From assembly GCF_053078305.1 (NCBI RefSeq), contig NZ_CP166879.1: a DNA stretch of 64,000 nucleotides, one strand, 5' to 3'. Each line of letters opens with the position of its first letter. The stretch's first letter is position 1. A program made the translations under genes and the position numbers. This document shows, one piece after another, positions 1-53,868 of the stretch. A model generated the notes under the pieces. It was not told the DNA's origin and ran no database searches. It was given only the letters and a program-made list of their open reading frames with translations.

Positions 1-1
1 A

Positions 2-460
2 TTTTTGTTGATGGAAATTGTTATGCCTCAGATTAGCCGGACCGCACTGGTACCCTACAGCGCGGAGCAAATGTATCAGTTAGTGAATGACGTTCAGTCT
101 TATCCTCAGTTTTTGCCGGGTTGTACCGGAAGTCGGATTCTGGAGTCCACTCCTGGGCAGATGACTGCGGCGGTAGATGTCTCTAAGGCTGGGATCAGCA
201 AAACGTTTACTACCCGCAACCAGTTGACCAGTAACCAAAGTATTCTTATGAATCTGGTGGATGGGCCGTTCAAGAAATTGATTGGTGGATGGAAGTTTAC
301 GCCGCTGAGCCAGGAGGCGTGTCGTATCGAGTTTCATCTCGACTTTGAGTTTACCAATAAGTTGATTGAGCTCGCCTTTGGTCGCGTGTTTAAAGAGCTG
401 GCGTCTAATATGGTCCAGGCTTTTACGGTTCGTGCGAAAGAGGTTTACAGTGCCAGGTAA
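2..460 (+). CDS. ratA: Ribosome association toxin RatA (SRPBCC/polyketide cyclase-like); reading frame is open to the window edge, so the 5-prime end may be truncated
   Basis: Translation [33 protein letters not shown]... matches RatA/YfjG as recalled; in-frame ATGs at 11 and 23; overlaps ratB start. Confidence 0.85.
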
Positions 461-740
461 AATTGCCGTTGAGGTGGCTTATGCGCTACCTGAGAAGCAG
501 TACCTGCAGCGCGTGACGCTGCAGGAGGGCGCGACGGTTGAAGAAGCTATTCGCGCCAGTGGCTTGCTGGAATTGCGGACCGATATCGATTTAACTAAAA
601 ACAAAGTCGGCATTTACAGCCGTCCGGCAAAACTAAGCGATAGTGTGCATGATGGTGATCGGGTGGAGATTTATCGCCCTCTCATTGCCGATCCGAAAGA
701 GCTTCGCAGGCAACGAGCAGAAAAATCAGCGAATAAATAA
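450..740 (+). CDS. ratB: RatB (YfjF), 96 aa, GTG start overlapping the ratA stop
   Basis: Translation (V)[26 protein letters not shown]... ends at the ORF stop at 740; GTG at 450. Confidence 0.85.
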
Positions 741-747
741 CGGACAG

Positions 748-778
748 AAAAAAGGTGCTCATTGAGCACCTTTTTTAA
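748..778. terminator. Bidirectional rho-independent terminator between convergent ratB and bamE
   Basis: AAAAAAGGTGCTCATTGAGCACCTTTTTT: GC stem flanked by an A-run and a T-run. Confidence 0.75.
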
Positions 779-801
779 CGTCTTTGAGAGCAACTTTATT
801 A

Positions 802-1143
802 TTAGTTACCACTCAGCGCAGGTTTGTTATCAATATTGGTCAACACACCGCTACTGTTAAAGGTTAGCGTCAGCGTTTGCTGCGTTACACCTTCATGACC
901 TGGTTGCTGGCGGAAGACATAGAACCAGGTATTCGTACCAAATGGATCGGACATCAGCGGTGTACCCAATGCGTACGCAACTTGTTGTTGCGTCATGCCA
1001 ACACGTATTTTGGATACGTCGTTAGCGGTCAGATAGTTCCCCTGGTTGATGTCAGGACGGTAAACCACTCGCTCCAGAGTGGAACAGCCTGCGGTCAACA
1101 TCAATAGTACTGCTGCTGCAGCAGTCAGCGTTTTACAGCGCAT
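802..1143 (-). CDS. bamE: Outer membrane protein assembly factor BamE (SmpA) lipoprotein
   Basis: 113-aa [41 protein letters not shown]... with lipobox LTAGC. Confidence 0.93.
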
Positions 1144-1291
1144 AGTGATTTGATTCCTTTTCGGGCCCGAGCAGTACGTGGCTCATCTGTAATATGCCGA
1201 TGATAATAGACCTTTCATCACTTTAAAACCTTTTGCTTTCCGGTCTTACGGCGTTTTGCTGTTTACTCTGACCGTGAAGCAGGAAAAAAGT

Positions 1292-2953
1292 TTACGCTGC
1301 AAGCAGTTCTTTCGCATTCGCCAGTGTGTTACGTGTGACTTCACTGCCACCAAGCAGGCGCGCCAGCTCTTGTAACCGCGCTTTTTTATCCAGAGATTGC
1401 ATATGCGTTTCTGTCATCGCACCATCGGTTTCTTTGCTGACAAAATAGTGTTGATGACCACATCCCGCGACTTGTGGCAGGTGGGTAACACACATCACCT
1501 GAGTTGATTCGCCGAGTTGACGCAGCAGTTTGCCGACAACTGCCGCTGTTGGACCACTAATCCCTACATCCACTTCATCAAAAATCAGTGCCGGGGTTTC
1601 CATTTTACGCGCCGTGATGACCTGGATTGCCAGTGCGATGCGGGACAATTCACCACCGGATGCGACTTTGGCAATAGGCTGCATTGGCTGACCTGGGTTG
1701 GTGGTTACCCGAAACTCAATACGATCAGCACCGTCAGCGCCCAGGTGATGCTCGTCAAATTTAACATCGATCGTAAACTGCCCATGCGGCATTGAGAGCG
1801 CATGCATACTGTCGGTGATCAGCTGTGCAAGTTCTTCTGCATATTGCTGGCGTTGTTGGTGTAATGCGCGCGCGGTTTCCAGTGCCTGCTGATGATGTTT
1901 CGTTACCGCCAGCGCGAGCGTTTCTTGTGAGTCGGCCTGATCGTCCAGTTGCTGCTGTTCTTCCAGTAGCGACTGGTAATACTGTGGTAATGCCTCAGGG
2001 CTGACGTGATGTTTACGTGCCAGCGAAATCTGTTTTGAGATGCGTTGTTCAAGTTCAAACAGCCGGTTGGGATCGAGATCCAAACGATCGCAGTAGTGGC
2101 GCAGTTCGTCGCTGGCTTCAGCAATCTGGATGGTAGCTTCTTCCAGCATATCAAGTACGCCGGACAGTTTGCTGTCTATGCCAATCAATTCGCTCACCAG
2201 TTGTTTAGCCGTGTAAAGTTGACTTTGCAGGTTTGCGTCTTCACCGTCGGCCATTAATGCCAAAGCATTCTGGCTGGTGGTCAGCAATTGACCGCTGTTC
2301 GCCAGACGTTTGTACTCTTCGTCGATTTGCTCAAACTCTCCGGGCTGCGGATTAAATTCGTTAAGTTCTTTTAATTGGTATTGCAGCAGTTCCGCACGGG
2401 CAGCGCGTTCCTGACTTAACTGTTGATGATGCGCGAGGTCACGGCAGCTTTGATGCCACAACTGATAACGTGCGGTCATTTCCTGGAGTAGAGAGGTTTC
2501 ATTGGCATAGCCATCAAGCAGGAACTTTTGGTGCTCGGGTTTGGTGAGTAACTGATGAGCGTGCTGACCATGGATCTGAATCAGCAACTGACCCAGTTCG
2601 CGCAGTTGTGACAGAGGAACAGCTGTACCGTTGATGAAACCACGGGAGCGACCATCGCTGCTGATCACGCGACGAAGCAAACATTCATGCCCGTCTTCAA
2701 GCTGGTTTTCTTCCAGCCAGCGCAGGGCCGCTGGCGTATCTTTCAGAGAAAAACGGGCGCACAGGTCAGCGCGAGCAGCGCCGGTACGCACCATGTCGGC
2801 TTCAGCGCGACCACCGAGACAAAGACCGAGGGCATCTATTGCAATAGATTTACCCGCACCGGTTTCGCCAGTTATTACGGTCATGCCGCTATGAAAATCA
2901 ATCTCAAGCTCACGAACGATAGCAAAGTTGCTGATGGTCAGTTGTGCCAACAT
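1292..2953 (-). CDS. recN: DNA repair protein RecN
   Basis: 553-aa ORF with N-terminal Walker A GETGAGKS and SMC-like coiled-coil middle region. Confidence 0.95.
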
Positions 2954-2959
2954 AGTCGT

Positions 2960-3025
2960 TTTCCTGTATGAAAAACCATTACTGTTATTGTGTACAGTAT
3001 AAACTGGTTTTATATACAGTAAAGA
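2960..3025 (-). promoter_or_regulatory. recN promoter region with LexA (SOS) operator(s)
   Basis: CTGT-N8-ACAG motif at 2981-3000 (ACTGTTATTGTGTACAGTAT) plus a weaker CTGG-N8-ACAG immediately downstream, directly upstream of the recN start. Confidence 0.7.
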
Positions 3026-3038
3026 GGCTGGCGTAAAA

Positions 3039-3917
3039 TTAGAATAATTTTTTTGACCAGCCGAGCTTGGTGCTTAATGTATTGAAATAACTGTAATCTT
3101 TCGGATGAATCAGATTCAGATGGTAATCACAGCGACGAATCAGGACATCTTCACCTTCCTGAATCGGCAGTGCTATCTGGCTGTCGCAACTGATTTCCAG
3201 GTCGTTACGGCGATGCGAAAAACGCAGACGGATCGTGCTGCTGCTGTTTATGACCAGTGGTCGTGCTGACAACGTATGCGGAAACATGGGCACCAGGGTA
3301 ATCGCATCGAGAGAGGGGGTCAGAATAGGACCGCCCGCAGAGAGGGAATAGGCGGTGGAGCCTGTTGGCGTCGAAATAATTAGCCCATCAGATCGCTGAG
3401 AAAACGCAAAGATCTCGTCGATATACACTTCGAACTCTATCATATGCGCCACTTTGCCTGGATGAAGTACCACTTCATTTATCGCGGTGCTGATGCGCTT
3501 TTGGCAATCTTGCTGACAGACTTGCGCTTCCAGCAAAAAACGTTTCTCGCTGATGTAGTGACCTTCCAGCACATCGGCTAATTGTTGCTGGGCGTTATCG
3601 GGGTCAAGGTCAGTCAGGAAACCCAGGTTGCCACGGTTGATTCCAATAACTTTAATATCGTAGCGGGCGAGCGTGCGCGCCGCGCCCAGCATATTACCGT
3701 CGCCACCAACGACTACCGCGAGATCAGCCAGTTGCCCAATCTCCGCGAGCGTGCCAGTTTTCACATTCTTCAGTTGCAATTCGTGAGCGATTTGTTGCTC
3801 AACGATGACCTCGTAACCTTTTGTGCACAGCCAGCGGTAGAGCATTTCATGTGTTGTCAGTGCAGTAGGGTGCCGTGGGTGTCCCACAATGCCAATACAC
3901 TTGAAATGATTATTCAT
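3039..3917 (-). CDS. nadK: NAD kinase
   Basis: 292-aa ORF with [11 protein letters not shown] motif typical of NAD kinases. Confidence 0.93.
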
Positions 3918-3963
3918 TTTTCCGAGGTCCTTGTTGCGAAGATTGATGACAATGTGAGTGCTT

Positions 3964-3994
3964 CCCTTGAAACCCTGAAACTGATCCCCATAAT
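3964..3994 (+). promoter_or_regulatory. sigma32 heat-shock promoter of grpE
   Basis: CCCTTGAAA (-35) then a 13-bp spacer then CCCCATAAT (-10), about 45 bp upstream of the grpE ATG. Confidence 0.75.
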
Positions 3995-4006
3995 AAGCGA
4001 AGTTAG

Positions 4007-4633
<627 letters not shown>

Positions 4634-4687
4634 TTTCTGCTTTCGTAATAATTCACGGCCCTGCATGCGAATGCCGGGCCGTTTTCG

Positions 4688-5950
4688 TTACTCCGCCACA
4701 CTCTCGCGCAGCGGTTTCACAGGAAAAACTTTTACCTGCTTAATCATATTGTCCTGTACGTCGAGAATATCGATATCGTACTCGCCAATACGCACGCGGG
4801 TGCCTGCGACAGGGATCTCTTCCAGTGCCTCAAGAATGACGCCATTAACCGTGCGGGCATCATCTTCCGGTAGATGCCAGTTAAAGGCTTTGTTGATTTC
4901 CCGCACGTTGGCAGTGCCATCAATAATCACCGAACCGTCGTTTTGCGGCGTGACTTCTTCGGCAAGTGTTGGCGACATCGACGTAGTGAAATCGCCGACA
5001 ATCTCTTCCAGAATATCTTCAACCGTCACCAGCCCCTGAATGTCTCCATACTCGTTGACGACCAGGCCGACTTTCTTTTTGTTGCGCTGAAACTTTACCA
5101 ACTGCGTGCTGAGCGGCGTACCTTCCGGCACAAAATAGATCTCGTCCGCGGCGCGCAGCATGGTTTCTTTGGTGAACTCTTTTTTCTCCGACATCAACCG
5201 CCAGGCTTCACGTACTCGCAGCATACTGATGGCGTCGTCCAGCGAATCACGGTAGAGCACGATGCGCCCGTGAGGTGAGTGGGAGAGTTGGCGCAGAATC
5301 GATTTCCAGTCATCGTTGATATCAATACCGATAATTTCACTGCGCGGCACCATGATGTCATCAACGGTCATTTTTTCCAGATCGAGCACCGACAGCAGCA
5401 TATCCTGATTGCGACGGGAAATTTGTGAGCGCGATTCGTGCACGATAGTGCGCAACTCTTCTTTGCTCAAAGAGCCGCTAACCACGATATCGGTTTTGAT
5501 ACCCATCATGCGCATCAGCATACGGGTGATAGCATTCAGCAACCAGACCAGCGGCATCATCAAAATTTGCAGCGGAGCCAGCAGAAAACTACTCGGATAA
5601 GCGACTTTTTCCGGGTACAGCGCGGCAATGGTTTTCGGCAATACCTCAGCAAAAACCAGTACGACAAAAGTCAGCACACCAGTCGCAATTGCCACGCCCG
5701 CATCGCCGTACAAACGCATCCCAACAATAGTGCCGAGCGCGGAGGCAAGAATATTGACCAGGTTATTGCCGATTAACACCAGGCTTATCAGGCGGTCTGG
5801 CTTACGCAGCAATTTTTCGACGCGTTTGGCCGAGCGATTACCCTGTTTCGCCATATGTCGCAGACGATAGCGGTTGAGGGTCATCATTCCGGTTTCGGAC
5901 CCGGAAAAATAGGCTGAAATGACCACCATGATGATCAGAATAATGATCAA
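4688..5950 (-). CDS. yfjD: Inner membrane protein YfjD (DUF21-CBS-CorC/HlyC family)
   Basis: 420-aa ORF with N-terminal transmembrane segments and C-terminal CBS/CorC-like region. Confidence 0.88.
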   Translation of the reverse strand: MIIILIIMVVISAYFSGSETGMMTLNRYRLRHMAKQGNRSAKRVEKLLRKPDRLISLVLIGNNLVNILASALGTIVGMRLYGDAGVAIATGVLTFVVLVFAEVLPKTIAALYPEKVAYPSSFLLAPLQILMMPLVWLLNAITRMLMRMMGIKTDIVVSGSLSKEELRTIVHESRSQISRRNQDMLLSVLDLEKMTVDDIMVPRSEIIGIDINDDWKSILRQLSHSPHGRIVLYRDSLDDAISMLRVREAWRLMSEKKEFTKETMLRAADEIYFVPEGTPLSTQLVKFQRNKKKVGLVVNEYGDIQGLVTVEDILEEIVGDFTTSMSPTLAEEVTPQNDGSVIIDGTANVREINKAFNWHLPEDDARTVNGVILEALEEIPVAGTRVRIGEYDIDILDVQDNMIKQVKVFPVKPLRESVAE

Positions 5951-5995
5951 CGTAGTAGTAGAAATGTGTTCCAGGGGGAAACTCCTTTTCTGGGT

Positions 5996-6787
5996 TTAGC
6001 TGATTAACTGCTGGACAATTCGGCTGCCGAAGTAGGCCAGTGTCAGAATAACTGCACCCGCAACGTTAAACCAGACGACGCGGCGTCCACGCCATCCTTC
6101 ATGATAATGTCCCCACAGCAGCACAATATAGACAAACCACGCCACGATAGAGAGCACAGCCTTGTCGATATTTTCCATGCTAAATAAGTTGTGCATGTAG
6201 AACAGGCCAGTGCAAAGCGTGAGCGTTAGCAGCACCACGCCAATCTGCGTGATGTGGAACATTTTACGCTCGATACTCATCAATGGCGGCATTTCCTGGT
6301 TAAACGCCAGCTTCTTGTTCTTCAGTTGGTAATCAATCCACGCCAGTTGCAGCGCGTACAGGGCGGCGATAATTAGCGTGGCATAGGAAAAGAGCGATAA
6401 GCCAATGTGCACCAGCATCCCAGGCGTAGCTTCCAGATGGGTGATGTATTCATTGGGCATGAAGGTCGCCAGCGCCAGGTTGATAAGTGCAAAGGCATAG
6501 ACAATGGGTAGCAGCAACCAGCCACGATTGCGAGAAGCCACAATGGTCATTACCGTACAGATCATCAAACTGACCAATGAACCAACGTTCAGCAGGCTGA
6601 GGTTTTGTCCGCTATCACCGTCGGGCAGGATGCGGGCTTCCAGAGCGATTGCGTGGCAGACCAGCGCAATGACCGCAGAAATAATAGCCATGCGCCGCCA
6701 GCCGCCGTTTTTTTGCAGCAGACCGGGAACAATCAGCGCAAGACTGACGGAGTAGGCGACAAGCGCGAGCAGAGCAAAAACGGGCAT
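5996..6787 (-). CDS. ypjD: Inner membrane protein YpjD (cytochrome c assembly-like family)
   Basis: Polytopic membrane ORF; start placed at the internal Met (MPVFALLALVAYSVSL...) giving 263 aa; the ORF track extends to 6862. Confidence 0.82.
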   Translation of the reverse strand: MPVFALLALVAYSVSLALIVPGLLQKNGGWRRMAIISAVIALVCHAIALEARILPDGDSGQNLSLLNVGSLVSLMICTVMTIVASRNRGWLLLPIVYAFALINLALATFMPNEYITHLEATPGMLVHIGLSLFSYATLIIAALYALQLAWIDYQLKNKKLAFNQEMPPLMSIERKMFHITQIGVVLLTLTLCTGLFYMHNLFSMENIDKAVLSIVAWFVYIVLLWGHYHEGWRGRRVVWFNVAGAVILTLAYFGSRIVQQLIS

Positions 6788-6953
6788 AGTGATGTCGACA
6801 GTTTGAGCAATAAGAAAGAGAAGCAGTATAGCGTCAGGTGAACGCTGCTCCAACCGTTGCATAACAACAAAGACGCCTTCATGTTATACTGCGGCAAAAT
6901 ACTGATGATGTGTCGCGATTGCGGCCAACCGTTTCCACCCCAGGCGAGAGACA

Positions 6954-8315
6954 ATGTTTGATAATTTAACCGATCGTTTGTCGCGCACGCTGCGCAATAT
7001 CAGTGGCCGTGGACGCCTCACTGAAGACAACGTAAAAGATACGCTGCGCGAAGTGCGCATGGCGCTGCTGGAGGCGGACGTCGCTCTGCCGGTAGTGCGT
7101 GAGTTTATCAATCGCGTAAAAGAGAAAGCGGTTGGTCATGAAGTTAATAAGAGCCTGACGCCGGGGCAGGAGTTCGTCAAAATCGTCCGTAACGAACTGG
7201 TTGCGGCGATGGGCGAAGAGAACCAGACCCTGAACCTGGCTGCGCAACCGCCTGCGGTCGTACTGATGGCGGGCCTGCAAGGTGCCGGTAAAACAACCAG
7301 CGTTGGTAAACTCGGTAAGTTCCTGCGCGAGAAGCACAAGAAGAAAGTGCTGGTGGTTTCTGCTGACGTCTATCGCCCGGCGGCAATCAAACAGCTTGAG
7401 ACGCTGGCAGAGCAGGTGGGCGTTGATTTCTTCCCTTCTGATGTTGGTCAGAAGCCGGTAGATATCGTTAACGCGGCGCTGAAAGAAGCCAAACTGAAAT
7501 TCTACGACGTGCTGCTGGTGGATACCGCTGGTCGTCTGCACGTTGACGAAGCGATGATGGACGAGATCAAACAAGTCCATGCGTCGATTAACCCGGTTGA
7601 AACCCTGTTTGTGGTTGACGCCATGACCGGTCAGGATGCGGCCAATACGGCAAAAGCATTCAATGAAGCGTTACCGCTTACCGGCGTAGTGTTGACCAAA
7701 GTGGACGGCGATGCCCGCGGCGGTGCGGCGCTCTCTATTCGTCACATCACTGGCAAACCGATCAAGTTCCTCGGTGTTGGCGAGAAAACTGAGGCGCTGG
7801 AGCCGTTCCATCCGGACCGCATCGCGTCGCGTATTCTCGGCATGGGCGACGTACTGTCGCTGATCGAAGATATCGAAAGCAAAGTTGACCGCGCGCAGGC
7901 AGAGAAATTAGCCAGCAAGCTAAAAAAAGGCGACGGCTTCGATCTCAACGACTTTCTTGAGCAACTGCGCCAGATGAAAAATATGGGCGGCATGGCCAGC
8001 TTGATGGGCAAACTGCCGGGCATGGGGCAGATCCCGGATAACGTCAAGTCGCAGATGGACGATAAAGTGCTGGTGCGTATGGAAGCCATCATCAACTCAA
8101 TGACGATGAAAGAGCGCGCTAAGCCAGAAATCATCAAAGGTTCGCGTAAGCGTCGTATCGCCGCCGGTTGCGGGATGCAGGTACAGGACGTTAACCGCCT
8201 TCTGAAGCAGTTCGACGACATGCAGCGCATGATGAAGAAAATGAAGAAGGGCGGAATGGCGAAGATGATGAGAAGCATGAAGGGAATGATGCCGCCGGGA
8301 TTTCCTGGTCGCTAA
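6954..8315 (+). CDS. ffh: Signal recognition particle protein Ffh
   Basis: 453-aa ORF with GLQGAGKTT GTPase motif and Met-rich C-terminal M domain. Confidence 0.95.
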   Translation: MFDNLTDRLSRTLRNISGRGRLTEDNVKDTLREVRMALLEADVALPVVREFINRVKEKAVGHEVNKSLTPGQEFVKIVRNELVAAMGEENQTLNLAAQPPAVVLMAGLQGAGKTTSVGKLGKFLREKHKKKVLVVSADVYRPAAIKQLETLAEQVGVDFFPSDVGQKPVDIVNAALKEAKLKFYDVLLVDTAGRLHVDEAMMDEIKQVHASINPVETLFVVDAMTGQDAANTAKAFNEALPLTGVVLTKVDGDARGGAALSIRHITGKPIKFLGVGEKTEALEPFHPDRIASRILGMGDVLSLIEDIESKVDRAQAEKLASKLKKGDGFDLNDFLEQLRQMKNMGGMASLMGKLPGMGQIPDNVKSQMDDKVLVRMEAIINSMTMKERAKPEIIKGSRKRRIAAGCGMQVQDVNRLLKQFDDMQRMMKKMKKGGMAKMMRSMKGMMPPGFPGR

Positions 8316-8373
8316 ATGACCTTATGCGACAGAGTTATTAACTGCTGATTGCATTTTCTCCAGAAATCAGTAA

Positions 8374-8700
<327 letters not shown>

Positions 8701-8718
8701 TCTGTCACGGTGGTCATG

Positions 8719-9267
8719 ATGAGCAAACAACTCACCGCGCAAGCACCTGTTGATCCCATCGTTTTGGGAAAAATGGGTTCGTCTTACGGTATTCGTGGGT
8801 GGCTCAGAGTGTTTTCTTCCACCGAAGACGCCGAAAGCATTTTTGACTATCAGCCCTGGTTTATCCAGAAGGCGGGTCAGTGGCAGCAAGTCCAGCTGGA
8901 AAGCTGGAAGCACCACAATCAGGACATGATCATCAAGCTGAAAGGCGTTGACGATCGTGATGCGGCGAACCTGCTGACGAATTGTGAAATTGTCGTGGAT
9001 TCATCGCAGCTGCCTCAGCTTGAAGAGGGTGACTACTACTGGAAAGACCTGATGGGCTGCCAGGTAGTAACCACTGAAGGCTACGATCTCGGTAAAGTCG
9101 TCGATATGATGGAAACCGGATCCAATGACGTTCTCGTCATTAAGGCAAACCTGAAAGATGCGTTTGGTATCAAGGAACGTCTCGTACCGTTCCTCGATGG
9201 GCAGGTTATCAAGAAAGTCGATCTCACTACTCGTTCAATCGAAGTAGATTGGGATCCTGGTTTTTAA
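8719..9267 (+). CDS. rimM: Ribosome maturation factor RimM
   Basis: [37 protein letters not shown]... Confidence 0.92.
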
Positions 9268-9297
9268 ACCACCGGATAAACGGTAAAAGACGGCGCT

Positions 9298-10065
9298 ATG
9301 TGGATTGGCATAATTAGCCTGTTTCCTGAAATGTTCCGCGCAATTACCGATTACGGGGTAACTGGCCGGGCAGTTAAAAATGGCCTGCTGAGCATCCAGA
9401 GCTGGAGTCCTCGCGACTTCACGCATGACCGGCACCGTACCGTGGACGATCGTCCTTACGGCGGCGGACCGGGGATGTTAATGATGGTGCAACCCTTGCG
9501 GGACGCCATTCATGCAGCAAAAGCCGCGGCGGGTGAAGGCGCAAAGGTGATTTATCTGTCACCACAGGGACGCAAGCTTGATCAAGCGGGCGTCAGCGAG
9601 CTAGCAACGAATCAAAAATTGATTCTGGTGTGCGGTCGCTACGAAGGTATAGATGAGCGCGTGATCCAAACCGAAATTGACGAAGAATGGTCAATCGGCG
9701 ATTACGTTCTCAGTGGTGGTGAGTTACCAGCAATGACGCTGATTGACTCCGTTTCCCGGTTTATTCCGGGAGTACTGGGACATGAAGCCTCGGCAACGGA
9801 AGATTCCTTTGCTGAAGGATTGCTGGATTGCCCGCACTATACGCGGCCTGAGGTGTTAGAAGGGATGGAAGTTCCGCCAGTGTTACTGTCGGGCAACCAT
9901 GCCGAGATACGTCGCTGGCGTTTGAAACAGTCGCTGGGCCGTACCTGGCTTAGAAGACCTGAACTTCTGGAAAACCTGGCTCTGACTGAAGAGCAAGCAA
10001 GGTTGCTGGCGGAGTTCAAAACGGAACACGCACAACAGCAACATAAACATGATGGGATGGCGTAA
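9298..10065 (+). CDS. trmD: tRNA (guanine37-N1)-methyltransferase TrmD
   Basis: 255-aa [16 protein letters not shown]... in the conserved rpsP-rimM-trmD-rplS operon. Confidence 0.95.
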
Positions 10066-10103
10066 GCCCCCGAGATATCAGTTTACCCAGGATAAGAGAT
10101 TAA

Positions 10104-10454
<351 letters not shown>

Positions 10455-16910: not shown

Positions 16911-16946
16911 ATCAATAAAAAAGGCCCCCCGATTTGGGAGGCCTTA
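16911..16946 (-). terminator. pheA attenuator (leader terminator)
   Basis: AAGGCCCCCCGATTTGGGAGGCCTT GC-rich hairpin with a U-run on the minus strand, between pheL and pheA. Confidence 0.85.
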
Positions 16947-16991
16947 TTGTTCGTCTTCGCATTCTGTTTCACACGACGAAACGCCTCCCAT

Positions 16992-17039
16992 TCAGGGGAA
17001 GGTAAAAAAGAATGCGAAGAAAAACGGTGTGTGTTTCAT
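16992..17039 (-). CDS. pheL: pheA leader peptide, 15 aa MKHTPFFFAFFFTFP (below the ORF-track size cutoff)
   Basis: Minus-strand ATGAAACACACACCGTTTTTCTTCGCATTCTTTTTTACCTTCCCCTGA; seven Phe codons in 15. Confidence 0.9.
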   Translation of the reverse strand: MKHTPFFFAFFFTFP

Positions 17040-17142
17040 GTTTGTTTCCTTAAGTGACTTTAGTACAGTACCCGTACTGTTTTCACGCTGTCAACAAAAA
17101 ACGCGCCCGAAGGCGCGTTGGCGATACACTCAATATAAAGGA

Positions 17143-20335: not shown

Positions 20336-20395
20336 CCTAAAGAATCAAGACGATCCGGTACGCGTGATTTTCTTTTCACATTAATCTGGTCAATA

Positions 20396-20427
20396 ACCTT
20401 GAATAATTGAGGGATGACCTCATTTAA
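20396..20427 (+). promoter_or_regulatory. sigma32 heat-shock promoter of clpB
   Basis: CCTTGAATAA (-35), 13-bp spacer, CCTCATTTA (-10), about 40 bp upstream of the clpB start. Confidence 0.75.
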
Positions 20428-20464
20428 TCTCCAGTAGCAACTTTGATCCGTTATGGGAGGAGTT

Positions 20465-23038
20465 ATGCGTCTGGATCGTCTTACTAATAAATTCCAGCTT
20501 GCTCTTGCCGATGCCCAATCACTTGCACTCGGGCACGACAACCAATTCATCGAACCACTTCATTTAATGAGCGCCCTGCTGAATCAGGAAGGGGGTTCGG
20601 TTAGTCCTTTGTTAACATCAGCTGGCATAAATGCTGGCCAGTTGCGCACAGATATCAATCAGGCATTAAATCGTTTACCGCAGGTTGAAGGTACTGGTGG
20701 TGATGTCCAGCCATCACAGGATCTGGTGCGCGTTCTTAATCTTTGCGACAAGCTGGCGCAAAAACGTGGTGATAACTTTATCTCGTCAGAACTGTTCGTT
20801 CTGGCGGCACTTGAGTCTCGCGGCACGCTGGCCGACATCCTGAAAGCAGCAGGGGCGACCACCGCCAACATTACTCAAGCGATTGAACAAATGCGTGGAG
20901 GTGAAAGCGTGAACGATCAAGGTGCTGAAGACCAACGTCAGGCTTTGAAAAAATATACCATCGACCTTACCGAACGAGCCGAACAGGGCAAACTCGATCC
21001 GGTGATTGGTCGTGATGAAGAAATTCGCCGTACCATTCAGGTGCTGCAACGTCGTACTAAAAATAACCCGGTACTGATTGGTGAACCCGGCGTCGGTAAA
21101 ACTGCCATCGTTGAAGGTCTGGCGCAGCGTATTATCAACGGCGAAGTGCCGGAAGGGTTGAAAGGCCGCCGGGTACTGGCGCTGGATATGGGCGCGCTGG
21201 TGGCTGGGGCGAAATATCGCGGTGAGTTTGAAGAACGTTTAAAAGGCGTGCTTAACGATCTTGCCAAACAGGAAGGCAACGTCATCCTGTTTATCGACGA
21301 ATTACATACCATGGTCGGCGCGGGTAAAGCCGATGGCGCAATGGACGCCGGAAACATGCTGAAACCGGCGCTGGCGCGTGGTGAATTGCACTGCGTAGGT
21401 GCCACGACGCTTGACGAATATCGCCAGTACATTGAAAAAGATGCTGCGCTGGAACGTCGTTTCCAGAAAGTGTTTGTTGCCGAGCCTTCTGTTGAAGATA
21501 CCATTGCGATTCTACGTGGCCTGAAAGAACGTTACGAATTGCACCACCATGTGCAAATTACTGACCCGGCAATTGTTGCAGCGGCGACGTTGTCTCATCG
21601 CTACATTGCTGACCGTCAGCTGCCGGATAAAGCCATCGACCTGATCGATGAAGCAGCATCCAGCATTCGTATGCAGATTGACTCAAAACCAGAAGAACTC
21701 GACCGACTCGATCGCCGTATCATCCAGCTCAAACTGGAACAACAGGCGTTAATGAAAGAGTCTGATGAAGCCAGTAAAAAACGCCTGGATATGCTCAACG
21801 AAGAACTGAGCGACAAAGAACGTCAGTACTCCGAGTTAGAAGAAGAGTGGAAAGCAGAGAAGGCATCGCTTTCTGGTACGCAGACCATTAAAGCGGAACT
21901 GGAACAGGCGAAAATCGCTATTGAACAGGCTCGCCGTGTGGGGGACCTGGCGCGGATGTCTGAACTGCAATACGGCAAAATCCCGGAACTGGAAAAGCAA
22001 CTGGAAGCCGCAACGCAGCTCGAAGGCAAAACTATGCGTCTGTTGCGTAATAAAGTGACCGACGCCGAAATTGCTGAAGTGCTGGCGCGTTGGACGGGGA
22101 TTCCGGTTTCTCGCATGATGGAAAGCGAGCGCGAAAAACTGCTGCGTATGGAGCAAGAACTGCACCATCGCGTAATTGGTCAGAACGAAGCGGTTGATGC
22201 GGTATCTAACGCTATTCGTCGTAGCCGTGCGGGGCTGGCGGATCCAAATCGCCCGATTGGTTCATTCCTGTTCCTCGGCCCAACTGGTGTGGGGAAAACA
22301 GAGCTTTGTAAGGCGCTGGCGAACTTTATGTTTGATAGCGACGAGGCGATGGTCCGTATCGATATGTCCGAGTTTATGGAGAAACACTCGGTGTCTCGTC
22401 TGGTTGGTGCGCCTCCGGGATATGTTGGTTATGAAGAAGGTGGCTACCTGACCGAAGCTGTGCGTCGTCGTCCGTATTCCGTTATCCTGCTGGATGAAGT
22501 GGAAAAAGCGCATCCGGATGTCTTCAACATTCTGTTGCAGGTACTGGATGATGGGCGTCTGACTGACGGGCAGGGGAGAACGGTCGACTTCCGTAATACG
22601 GTTGTCATTATGACCTCTAACCTCGGTTCCGATTTGATTCAGGAACGCTTCGGTGAACTGGATTATGCGCACATGAAAGAGCTGGTGCTCGGTGTGGTTA
22701 GCCATAACTTCCGTCCGGAATTCATTAACCGTATCGATGAAGTGGTGGTCTTCCATCCGCTGGGTGAACAGCACATTGCGTCGATTGCGCAGATTCAGTT
22801 GAAACGTCTGTATAAACGTCTGGAAGAACGTGGTTATGAAATCCACATTTCTGACGAGGCGCTGAAACTGCTGAGCGAGAACGGTTACGATCCGGTCTAT
22901 GGTGCACGTCCTCTGAAACGTGCAATTCAGCAGCAGATCGAAAACCCGCTGGCACAGCAAATACTGTCTGGTGAATTGGTTCCGGGTAAAGTGATTCGCC
23001 TGGAAGTTAATGAAGACCGGATTGTCGCCGTCCAGTAA
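20465..23038 (+). CDS. clpB: Chaperone ClpB (AAA+ disaggregase)
   Basis: [27 protein letters not shown]...; two AAA+ modules (GEPGVGKT and GPTGVGKT); 857 aa from the ATG at 20465. Confidence 0.96.
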
Positions 23039-23153: not shown

Positions 23154-23181
23154 TTGTCAGGCCGGAATAACTCCCTATAAT
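23154..23181 (+). promoter_or_regulatory. rRNA operon promoter P1, with AT-rich UP-element-like sequence upstream (about 23100-23153)
   Basis: TTGTCA, 16-bp spacer, TATAAT followed by GC-rich discriminator TGCGCCACC. Confidence 0.8.
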
Positions 23182-23272: not shown

Positions 23273-23300
23273 TTGACTCTGTAGCGGGAAAGCGTATTAT
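23273..23300 (+). promoter_or_regulatory. rRNA operon promoter P2
   Basis: TTGACT, 16-bp spacer, TATTAT. Confidence 0.8.
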
Positions 23301-23481: not shown

Positions 23482-25023
<1,542 letters not shown>

Positions 25024-25184: not shown

Positions 25185-25377
25185 CTTGCTGGTTTGTGAG
25201 TGAAAGTCACCTGCCTTAATATCTCAAAACTCATCTTCGGGTGATGTTTGAGATATTTGCTCTTTAAAAATCTGGATCAAGCTGAAAATTGAAACACTGA
25301 ACAACGAGAGTTGTTCGTGAGTCTCTCAAATTTTCGCAACACGATGATGAATCGAAAGAAACATCTTCGGGTTGTGA

Positions 25378-45630: not shown

Positions 45631-46586
45631 TGAAGCAACTTTGGTTTGCCATGTCATTAGTGACAGGTAGCCTGTTATTCTCTGCTAACGCCTCGGCCAC
45701 TCCCGCGTCCGGGGCGTTATTACAGCAGATGAACCTGGCCAGTCAGTCACTGAATTACGAGCTGTCATTCATCAGCATCAATAAACAGGGTGTTGAGTCT
45801 CTGCGTTATCGACATGCACGCCTCGATAACCGTCCTCTTGCACAATTGTTGCAAATGGATGGCCCGCGCCGGGAAGTGGTACAGCGCGGCAATGAAATCA
45901 GCTATTTTGAACCGGGCCTTGAACCGTTTACTCTTAATGGCGATTACATTGTTGATTCTCTGCCATCGCTCATCTATACCGATTTCAAACGCCTTTCTCC
46001 TTACTACGACTTTATCTCCGTCGGGCGCACGCGTATTGCTGATCGTCTTTGTGAAGTTATTCGCGTGGTTGCTCGTGATGGCACACGCTACAGCTACATC
46101 GTGTGGATGGACACCGAATCGAAATTACCGATGCGGGTTGATCTTCTTGATCGCGATGGTGAAACGCTGGAACAATTTCGCGTGATTGCTTTTAACGTCA
46201 ATCAGGATATCAGCAGCAGTATGCAGACGCTGGCGAAGGCAAATTTGCCGCCGTTGCTTTCTGTTCCTGTAGGTGAAAAAGCTAAATTCAGCTGGACGCC
46301 AACCTGGTTGCCACAGGGTTTTAGCGAAGTTTCCAGTAGTCGACGTCCGCTACCGACGATGGACAACATGCCTATCGAATCACGTCTCTATTCCGACGGA
46401 TTATTCAGCTTCTCGGTAAACGTTAACCGCGCTACGCCATCGAGCACCGATCAGATGTTGCGCACCGGACGCAGAACCGTCAGTACAAGCGTACGTGATA
46501 ACGCTGAAATCACCATTGTCGGTGAACTGCCGCCGCAAACGGCGAAACGCATTGCCGAGAATATTAAGTTCGGGGCAGCGCAATGA
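45630..46586 (+). CDS. rseB: SigmaE regulatory protein RseB
   Basis: 318-aa ORF with signal peptide. Confidence 0.95.
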   Translation: MKQLWFAMSLVTGSLLFSANASATPASGALLQQMNLASQSLNYELSFISINKQGVESLRYRHARLDNRPLAQLLQMDGPRREVVQRGNEISYFEPGLEPFTLNGDYIVDSLPSLIYTDFKRLSPYYDFISVGRTRIADRLCEVIRVVARDGTRYSYIVWMDTESKLPMRVDLLDRDGETLEQFRVIAFNVNQDISSSMQTLAKANLPPLLSVPVGEKAKFSWTPTWLPQGFSEVSSSRRPLPTMDNMPIESRLYSDGLFSFSVNVNRATPSSTDQMLRTGRRTVSTSVRDNAEITIVGELPPQTAKRIAENIKFGAAQ

Positions 46587-47062
46587 TCAAAGAGTGGGCT
46601 ACCGTCGTCTCCTGGCAAAACGGGCAGGCGCTGGTCAGTTGTGATGTTAAAGCCTCATGCAGCAGCTGCGCTTCACGCGCCGGTTGCGGTAGCCGCGTGT
46701 TGAATAAACTTGGCCCGCAAACCACGCATACCATTGTCGTACCCTGTGATGAGCCGTTAGTGCCGGGGCAAAAAGTGGAATTGGGGATCGCCGAAGGCAG
46801 CCTGCTTAGCTCCGCATTACTGGTTTATATGTCGCCGCTGGTGGGATTATTCCTCATCGCTTCGCTATTTCAGCTACTCTTTGCTTCTGACGTCGCAGCA
46901 TTATGTGGTGCGGTCCTCGGCGGTATTGGCGGGTTCCTGATTGCGCGTGGCTACTCGCGTAAGTTTGCTGCCCGGGCAGAATGGCAACCGATCATCTTAA
47001 GCGTGGCATTGCCGCCTGGCCTTGTGCGATTTGAAACATCTTCGGAAGACGCGAGCCAGTGA
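46583..47062 (+). CDS. rseC: SigmaE regulatory protein RseC
   Basis: 159-aa ORF overlapping the rseB stop. Confidence 0.93.
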   Translation: MIKEWATVVSWQNGQALVSCDVKASCSSCASRAGCGSRVLNKLGPQTTHTIVVPCDEPLVPGQKVELGIAEGSLLSSALLVYMSPLVGLFLIASLFQLLFASDVAALCGAVLGGIGGFLIARGYSRKFAARAEWQPIILSVALPPGLVRFETSSEDASQ

Positions 47063-47259
47063 TTTCACTGGCTTTGTTGCATTTTGCATAACAAATGCGA
47101 GGACGTTTCCAGATACCACAATCCATACGGTATGAACATTTCCTCGCCTCAATGTTGTAGTGTAGAATGCGGCGTTTCTATTAATACAGACGTTAAGCTC
47201 AGAACAGCGACTTCTAAAAGCCTGGTTAACCGGGCATTAAGGCACAATAATCATACTTT

Positions 47260-49059
<1,800 letters not shown>

Positions 49060-50101: not shown

Positions 50102-50291
50102 ATGAGATAAATCTCCCGTGGCTAACGACATCCCCCGTCGTTGTGTATAGAATATTCCCCCGAAGTTTAAGGTTGGCACCTCCAGGTTGCCACGGCACAC
50201 GAAACAGCGTTGGTCCCCATATACCGCTAAACTGAAACTGCAGCGAAGCAGTTAGCAGAGCCATGTATATCAGGTCTGTTTCGTGTGCTGA

Positions 50292-51904
<1,613 letters not shown>

Positions 51905-53767: not shown

Positions 53768-53791
53768 AAATAATACCGTTCTCTTTAAAAA

Positions 53792-53835
53792 GTAAAACCC
53801 CCGAACTGGTAAGGAACGGGGGTTTTACTTTGTAA
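53792..53835 (+). terminator. acpS operon terminator
   Basis: GTAAAACCCCCG...CGGGGGTTTTAC hairpin followed by TTTGTAACTTT. Confidence 0.8.
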
Positions 53836-53844
53836 CTTTAATTT

Positions 53845-53868
53845 AGTGCAGCACGCACCCTCAACAAC
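53845..53868. repeat. 24-nt element, copy 1 of an imperfect direct repeat (second copy at 54093-54116)
   Basis: AGTGCAGCACGCACCCTCAACAAC; contains the internal palindrome GTGC...GCAC. Confidence 0.6.

Follow-up and report, generated by a model that had tools for sequence, protein, structure and literature searches.

Does the clpB gene carried on the 64,000-nucleotide (nt) stretch of DNA analysed here (from contig NZ_CP166879.1 of NCBI RefSeq assembly GCF_053078305.1; hereafter the window) hold within its own coding sequence a second place at which ribosomes begin translation? An earlier reading made from the sequence alone, to which we refer as the sequence-only reading, had proposed that it does, in that a GGAGG at 20897-20901 ahead of an in-frame GTG at 20909 would be the preserved, known internal initiation site from which an N-terminally truncated isoform of the chaperone ClpB is made. 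We are all but certain that this site is the documented internal translation start of Escherichia coli clpB, which gives rise to the isoform ClpB80. Initiation at the codon and the role of the isoform are taken from published papers; the coordinates, the frame, the identity to strain K-12, the strength and complementarity of the Shine-Dalgarno (SD) sequence, the domain boundary and the conservation of the site were established in this work, and nothing that contradicts this explanation for E. coli was found in the course of it. The internal start is already known at textbook level and is annotated in the K-12 reference, and the earlier interpretation is correct; only the pattern of start codon and SD sequence across species extends beyond what was known.

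The gene itself is readily identified. The full-length coding sequence (CDS) occupies 20465-23038 of the plus strand, stop codon included, and encodes ClpB95, a protein of 857 amino acids and 95.6 kDa, as established from the open reading frame (ORF) and its translation, the identity to K-12 and the Pfam matches. In a protein alignment 857 of 857 residues are identical between ClpB of K-12 MG1655 and that of the window, and this identity, the synteny and the Pfam architecture (two Clp_N repeats followed by AAA, AAA_lid_9, AAA_2 and ClpB_D2-small) all agree in marking the gene as the clpB orthologue. The synteny consists of rluD, yfiH, clpB and a ribosomal RNA (rRNA) operon, with the 16S gene at 23482-25023 (the extent of the Rfam SSU_rRNA_bacteria match) followed by transfer RNA, 23S and 5S genes, which corresponds to the K-12 order rluD-yfiH-clpB-rrnG. 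Furthermore, of 5426 complete E. coli genomes, 5425 contain a match to the 2.8-kb clpB region that bears the annotation clpB, and in several the match is 100%.

Both elements of the proposed site can be read directly from the sequence, where positions 20880-20919 are cgattgaaca aatgcgtgga ggtgaaagcg tgaacgatca; the GGAGG lies at 20897-20901 as had been claimed, and the GTG occupies 20909-20911 of the plus strand. The assignment of this codon to Val149 is borne out by the frame, as (20909-20465)/3 equals 148 and the GTG is accordingly codon 149, and the translation across the site is A-I-E-Q-M143-R-G-G-E-S-V149-N-D-Q. The internal SD element, GGAGGTGA at 20897-20904 (+), spans the codons of Gly145 (GGA) and Gly146 (GGT) and reaches two bases into that of Glu147 (GAA), and what the sequence leaves of the spacer is 20905-20908 (+). 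Counted from the GGAGG core, the distance to the GTG is 7 nt (TGAAAGC, 20902-20908), which falls inside the usual spacer optimum of 5-9 nt in E. coli initiation regions. On the basis of frame, K-12 annotation and literature, the codon is at once Val149 of ClpB95 and the initiating N-formylmethionine (fMet1) of ClpB80.

The 121 nt centred on the internal site are 100% identical to those of K-12, whose RefSeq record (NC_000913.3) assigns two CDS to b2592, namely 'chaperone protein ClpB' (NP_417083.1, 2731600..2734173 complement) and 'ClpB80' (YP_010051194.1, 2731600..2733729 complement). The latter begins at the same GTG, 444 nt past the clpB ATG, and translates V-N-D-Q-G-A-E-D, such that the residue numbering of the K-12 alignment, by which the sequence-only reading had proposed that its claim be judged, does place the GTG at the documented start. 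Protein, 121-nt surroundings, SD, spacer, GTG and codon number are the same in both and no difference is detectable; the internal start of the window and that of K-12 are the same allele, and the strain from which the window derives may differ from K-12. As the DNA of the window is identical to that of K-12 here, the published results on initiation can safely be carried over. The alternate start of E. coli ClpB has been described as a GUG at position 149 that leads to both full-length and N-terminally truncated proteins (PMC6168691). Ribosome profiling, the second check that had been suggested, exists in the form of published E. coli Ribo-RET data, in which clpB, infB and mrcB are the three genes with previously characterised internal starts and specific peaks are observed at the verified sites, including that of clpB (10.1101/520783).

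A short isoform might also begin 18 nt farther upstream, at the ATG of Met143 (20891-20893), and this codon has some claim to consideration: ATG is a stronger start codon than GTG, gene-detection tools called Met143 as an alternative start in Salmonella Ribo-RET data (PMC11005335), and the aligned column is start-capable in 39 of the 80 species of the survey described below. However, no SD sequence lies upstream of this ATG (its duplex energy is -1.4 kcal/mol), the GGAGG being downstream of it, and a start codon and an SD coincide at column 143 in only 1 of the 80 species. K-12 RefSeq likewise starts ClpB80 at the GTG, not at Met143. Most directly, chromosomal mutagenesis in Salmonella showed that replacement of ATG427 (Met143) by CTT leaves both forms of ClpB, and that only replacement of GTG445 (Val149) by CTT removes the short form and leaves the long one (PMC11005335). 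We therefore regard an origin of the short isoform at Met143 as very improbable.

The strength of the internal SD was assessed by scoring the -20 to -4 region of each in-frame ATG, GTG or TTG codon in clpB (n=54) against the 16S tail. Of these 54, codon 149 has the strongest predicted SD:anti-SD duplex, at -13.6 kcal/mol, ahead of the primary start at -10.2 kcal/mol; the primary initiation region, recognised by sequence, duplex energy and annotation, comprises the SD-like GGGAGGAG at 20455-20462 and the ATG at 20465-20467 (20455-20467 overall, plus strand). The element GGAGGTGA is a perfect 8-nt complement of the anti-SD TCACCTCC, found in the same window at 25014-25021 (+) near the 3' end of the 16S rRNA gene rrsG, where ggatcacctcctta ends at 25023; at 8 nt, the internal SD is longer than the GGAGG noted earlier. 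GGAGG occurs once in the sense strand of clpB and GGAGGTGA is unique on the plus strand of the window, and GGA is used for only 3 of the 63 Gly codons of the gene, Gly145 of the internal SD among them. Windows of 41 and 61 nt around the GTG rank in the least-structured 10-12% of clpB. A structure that masks the SD in the manner of an RNA thermometer was considered and set aside for want of support: the 121-nt fold has a z of -1.47, 17 of 200 shuffles fold as well, and the predicted partner of the SD shifts with context, from an upstream CCACC in the 121-nt fold to a downstream segment, 20956-20965, in a 201-nt fold.

Conservation of the site was examined at several distances. The exact 30-mer at 20890-20919 is present in 5416 of the 5426 E. 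coli genomes, which is weak evidence, because the diversity of E. coli is low. More is to be learned from a comparison within the Enterobacteriaceae (E. coli, E. albertii, Citrobacter werkmanii and Enterobacter cloacae), in which codon identity at degenerate sites encoding the same residue is 61-65% for Citrobacter werkmanii and Enterobacter cloacae. Codons 143-149 nonetheless form a seven-codon run of full nucleotide identity across the four-species set, and this run ends at the GTG; of the six-codon windows in clpB only 1.8% are fully identical, and identical runs as long as that of codons 143-149 number 4 of 207. The SD element itself is identical in E. albertii, Citrobacter, Enterobacter and Salmonella, in the last case as read from the oligonucleotide oPVDL2496. 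In these sequences, the use of a rare GGA, a GGAGG that occurs nowhere else in the gene and the lack of synonymous change among the Enterobacteriaceae point to selection that would act on the RNA sequence.

At a greater distance, a single scan of species-representative genomes yielded the clpB loci of 80 Gamma- and Betaproteobacteria, with identities of 66-100%. Residue 149 is Val in 77 of the 80, encoded by GTG in 37, GTC in 28, GTT in 10 and GTA in 2, and the remaining 3 have ATT; the aligned codon thus cannot initiate (GTC, GTT, GTA or ATT) in 43 of the 80. The description of the site as preserved in the sequence-only reading consequently holds within E. coli and the Enterobacteriaceae, but not as a universal statement.

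A second alternative is that the GGAGG and the GTG are a by-product of the conserved R-G-G-E-S-V peptide with no role in initiation, and that short ClpB is either a product of proteolysis or translated from a shorter transcript that an internal promoter supplies. A number of observations weigh in that direction, and hence against an internal start. The arrangement GGAGG-N5-9-[A/G/T]TG is not enriched in the window (18 occurrences versus 22.1 +/- 4.2 in shuffles), and as the bare motif occurs at chance frequency, function could not be proved from the sequence by itself. The RGG(E/Q) peptide, which is conserved, forces much of the G-rich, SD-like character and gives an SD-like sequence in most species, and every species surveyed has a high mean SD energy ahead of columns 148-151. 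Nor is there an excess of GTG at Val149, for the 37 seen compare with 36.1 +/- 4.2 expected from the Val codon usage of each species' clpB. As to the origin of a shorter transcript, transcripts starting within the coding region of clpB have been reported in Leptospira (PMC6941012).

Against the by-product view stand the cited experiments, as the short form disappears upon point mutation of the GTG (PMC11005335) and Ribo-RET traps initiating ribosomes at the site (10.1101/520783). The route by way of an internal promoter is disfavoured by a consensus scan, limited to sigma-70, which found no sigma-70-like promoter between 20465 and 20909. The features described above as signs of selection on the RNA (a rare GGA, a single GGAGG, synonymous sites without change) also speak against a mere by-product, as does the fact that SD strength and the GTG vary together across species. 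A strong SD (<= -10 kcal/mol), often one that makes use of the rare GGA, accompanies 11 of the 37 GTG codons and 1 of the 43 non-GTG codons (Fisher p = 6e-4). With the four Enterobacteriaceae collapsed to one the proportions are 8/34 and 1/43 (p = 0.005), and a permutation stratified by GC content at third codon positions (GC3), after collapsing close relatives, gives p = 0.004; kinship among the surveyed species is controlled only crudely in these figures. No such link was found in any of 30 control columns with a conserved Val (0/30). GGA is likewise enriched at Gly145 (13 versus 5.9 +/- 2.3 expected) and is found with GTG149 in 11 of 37 species, versus 2 of 43 with other codons (p = 0.003). 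For E. coli and Salmonella the by-product view is already refuted by the cited experiments, and we consider it scarcely credible as an account of the site studied here.

Strong SD and GTG occur together in a scattered fashion: in the Enterobacteriaceae, a Pseudidiomarina, one of two Marinobacter, a Xanthomonas, an Alcanivorax and several metagenome-assembled genomes. At a looser threshold the column is not unique, as a start codon with an SD of <= -8 is found at column 149 in 17 species, second to column 262 with 19. Allowing the internal start to move within the linker (residues 134-164) identifies 19 of the 80 species, which is not significant, given that 11% of equally wide windows elsewhere in clpB match or beat this figure. 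From these comparisons of sequence it looks as though the internal start, where present, is real and selected, and patchy, not universal; we offer this as a lead, not a result. Whether the ClpB80 start is a lineage-patchy trait that has been repeatedly gained or lost, and not an ancient universal feature of clpB, is in our estimation an evenly balanced proposition. If it is true, many proteobacteria (among those sampled, the Pseudomonas and several species of Shewanella, Vibrio and Legionella) would make full-length ClpB only or use another route, and claims of conservation of the internal site across bacteria that are based on protein alignments would be overstated. The survey in any case cautions that a conserved Val alone is no ground for inferring an internal start; the start codon need not be conserved along with the residue, and every lineage has to be tested separately.

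What would be made from the internal start is a well-delimited protein. Both Clp_N repeats identified by Pfam precede the site, the first AAA domain begins at residue 203, and the isolated N-terminal domain of ClpB in PDB entry 1KHY spans exactly residues 1-148. The internal start is therefore at the boundary between the N-terminal domain and the first nucleotide-binding domain (NBD1), and its product, of about 80 kDa, is without the N-domain only. The ClpB80 CDS, taken from the K-12 annotation, extends over 20909-23038 (+) and encodes 709 amino acids with a computed mass of 79.9 kDa; together with the 95.6 kDa predicted for the 857-residue protein, this agrees with the names ClpB95 and ClpB80. 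With its start at the end of the N-domain, ClpB80 keeps the whole AAA+ disaggregase motor and lacks only the N-domain, which binds substrate.

Both proteins may well depend upon a single promoter. Upstream of clpB, at 20398-20426 (+), is a sigma-32-type promoter-like sequence consisting of CTTGAAT, 13 nt and CCTCATTTA, recognised by its likeness to the consensus CTTGAAA N13-15 CCCCATNT. It probably drives a single messenger RNA (mRNA) that carries both start sites, and we infer that in this strain the two products arise from the same sigma-32 transcript. In the mechanism that we propose, one heat-shock-inducible clpB mRNA would offer two independent ribosome entry points. Initiation at the ATG at 20465 would yield full-length ClpB95; pairing of the 16S 3' end with GGAGGTGA would set the GTG at 20909 in the peptidyl (P) site and yield ClpB80, which comprises residues 149-857 and begins with fMet in place of Val149. 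The second start falls in the linker, after the N-terminal domain and ahead of the first ATPase domain. A heat-inducible sigma-32 promoter from E. coli has also been put on a plasmid (PMC6941012).

Several other features coincide with the 5' end of the gene. A match to Rfam RF02768 (the Ysr155/RyfD small RNA; 125 bits) at 20346-20484 (+), on the strand of clpB, overlaps the promoter of that gene, its 5' untranslated region and 20 nt at the beginning of its CDS, and ryfD is annotated at the equivalent place in K-12; the match may simply represent a 5' fragment of the clpB transcript. A short inverted repeat, TGAGGGATGACCTCA, followed by TTTAAT (20408-20422, +), was flagged as terminator-like. 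It sits between the -35-like and -10-like parts of the putative sigma-32 promoter and overlaps the latter, and probably arises by chance from the promoter sequence. An in-frame ATG at 20453 (+), four codons before the annotated start ('MGGVM') and inside the primary SD GGGAGGAG, is the point at which the ORF listing begins clpB, for a length of 861 amino acids; the annotations choose the ATG at 20465. The annotated ATG is at 20465-20467 according to both K-12 and strain Res13-Sevr-PER07-33, whose clpB is 100% identical, and the ATG at 20453 is the annotated start in neither of them.

Comparable arrangements have been described elsewhere. The clpB of Salmonella Typhimurium, in which the start at GTG445 (Val149) was established by chromosomal mutagenesis (PMC11005335), has the same GGAGGTGAAAGCGTG and the same codon number, and a mutagenic oligonucleotide in the supplement to that work shows the same GGAGGTGAAAGC-GTG. 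The gene differs from that of E. coli by synonymous changes on either side of the site, upstream at Q138, A139, Q142 and R144 and downstream at G153 and A160. Within E. coli, infB (IF2-alpha/beta) and mrcB (PBP1b) likewise possess in-frame internal starts that are driven by an SD, use the same mRNA as the full-length protein and are detected by Ribo-RET (10.1101/520783); these genes are unrelated to clpB, whose internal start differs in falling at a domain boundary and removing a whole globular domain. Mycobacterium tuberculosis also has two isoforms, ClpB and ClpB-deltaN, of which the short one is without the N-terminal domain and has been ascribed to a GTG at 149 (PMC6168691), although this organism belongs to a distant lineage outside the 80-species survey.

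With regard to function, ClpB95 and ClpB80 form hetero-oligomers that act synergistically in the reactivation of aggregates (PMC6941012; 10.1101/428458), and according to the literature the mixed hexamers have better disaggregase activity, reactivating aggregates more effectively than either isoform does by itself. The ratio of the isoforms shifts under stress (PMC11005335, PMC6941012, 10.1101/428458). To this isoform biology of mixed hexamers and a stress-shifted ratio, the present analysis adds nothing new. Its practical consequence is one of annotation, in that clpB should carry two CDS, ClpB95 from 20465 and ClpB80 from 20909, as in K-12 RefSeq. Most automated annotations are without the second clpB CDS, and the record of one strain with a 100% identical gene lists a single CDS.

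A few observations concern the remainder of the window. Between clpB and the 16S gene are two near-consensus sigma-70 promoters on the plus strand, at 23154-23181 (11/12 matches) and 23273-23300 (10/12 matches), which fit the tandem P1 and P2 of the rRNA operon, rrnG by synteny. In NZ_CP062811.1, from the strain with the 100% identical clpB, a P2-like prophage (integrase, CI repressor, portal, terminase) adjoins yfiB, and the window is without the prophage. The alignment of the window to that genome begins at 10440, and window positions 1-10440 have long plus-strand ORFs of 453, 185 and 255 amino acids, which by their size and order on the K-12 map could, we presume, be ffh, rimM and trmD. The other matches at the Rfam gathering threshold, namely the AsrC antisense RNA (46547-47378, -), the rncO leader (50162-50376, +), the ohsC antitoxin small RNA (53789-53865, -), StyR-44 in the 16S-23S spacer (25262-25370, +) and the Phe leader (16915-17040, -), are all expected in such a region of E. 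coli.

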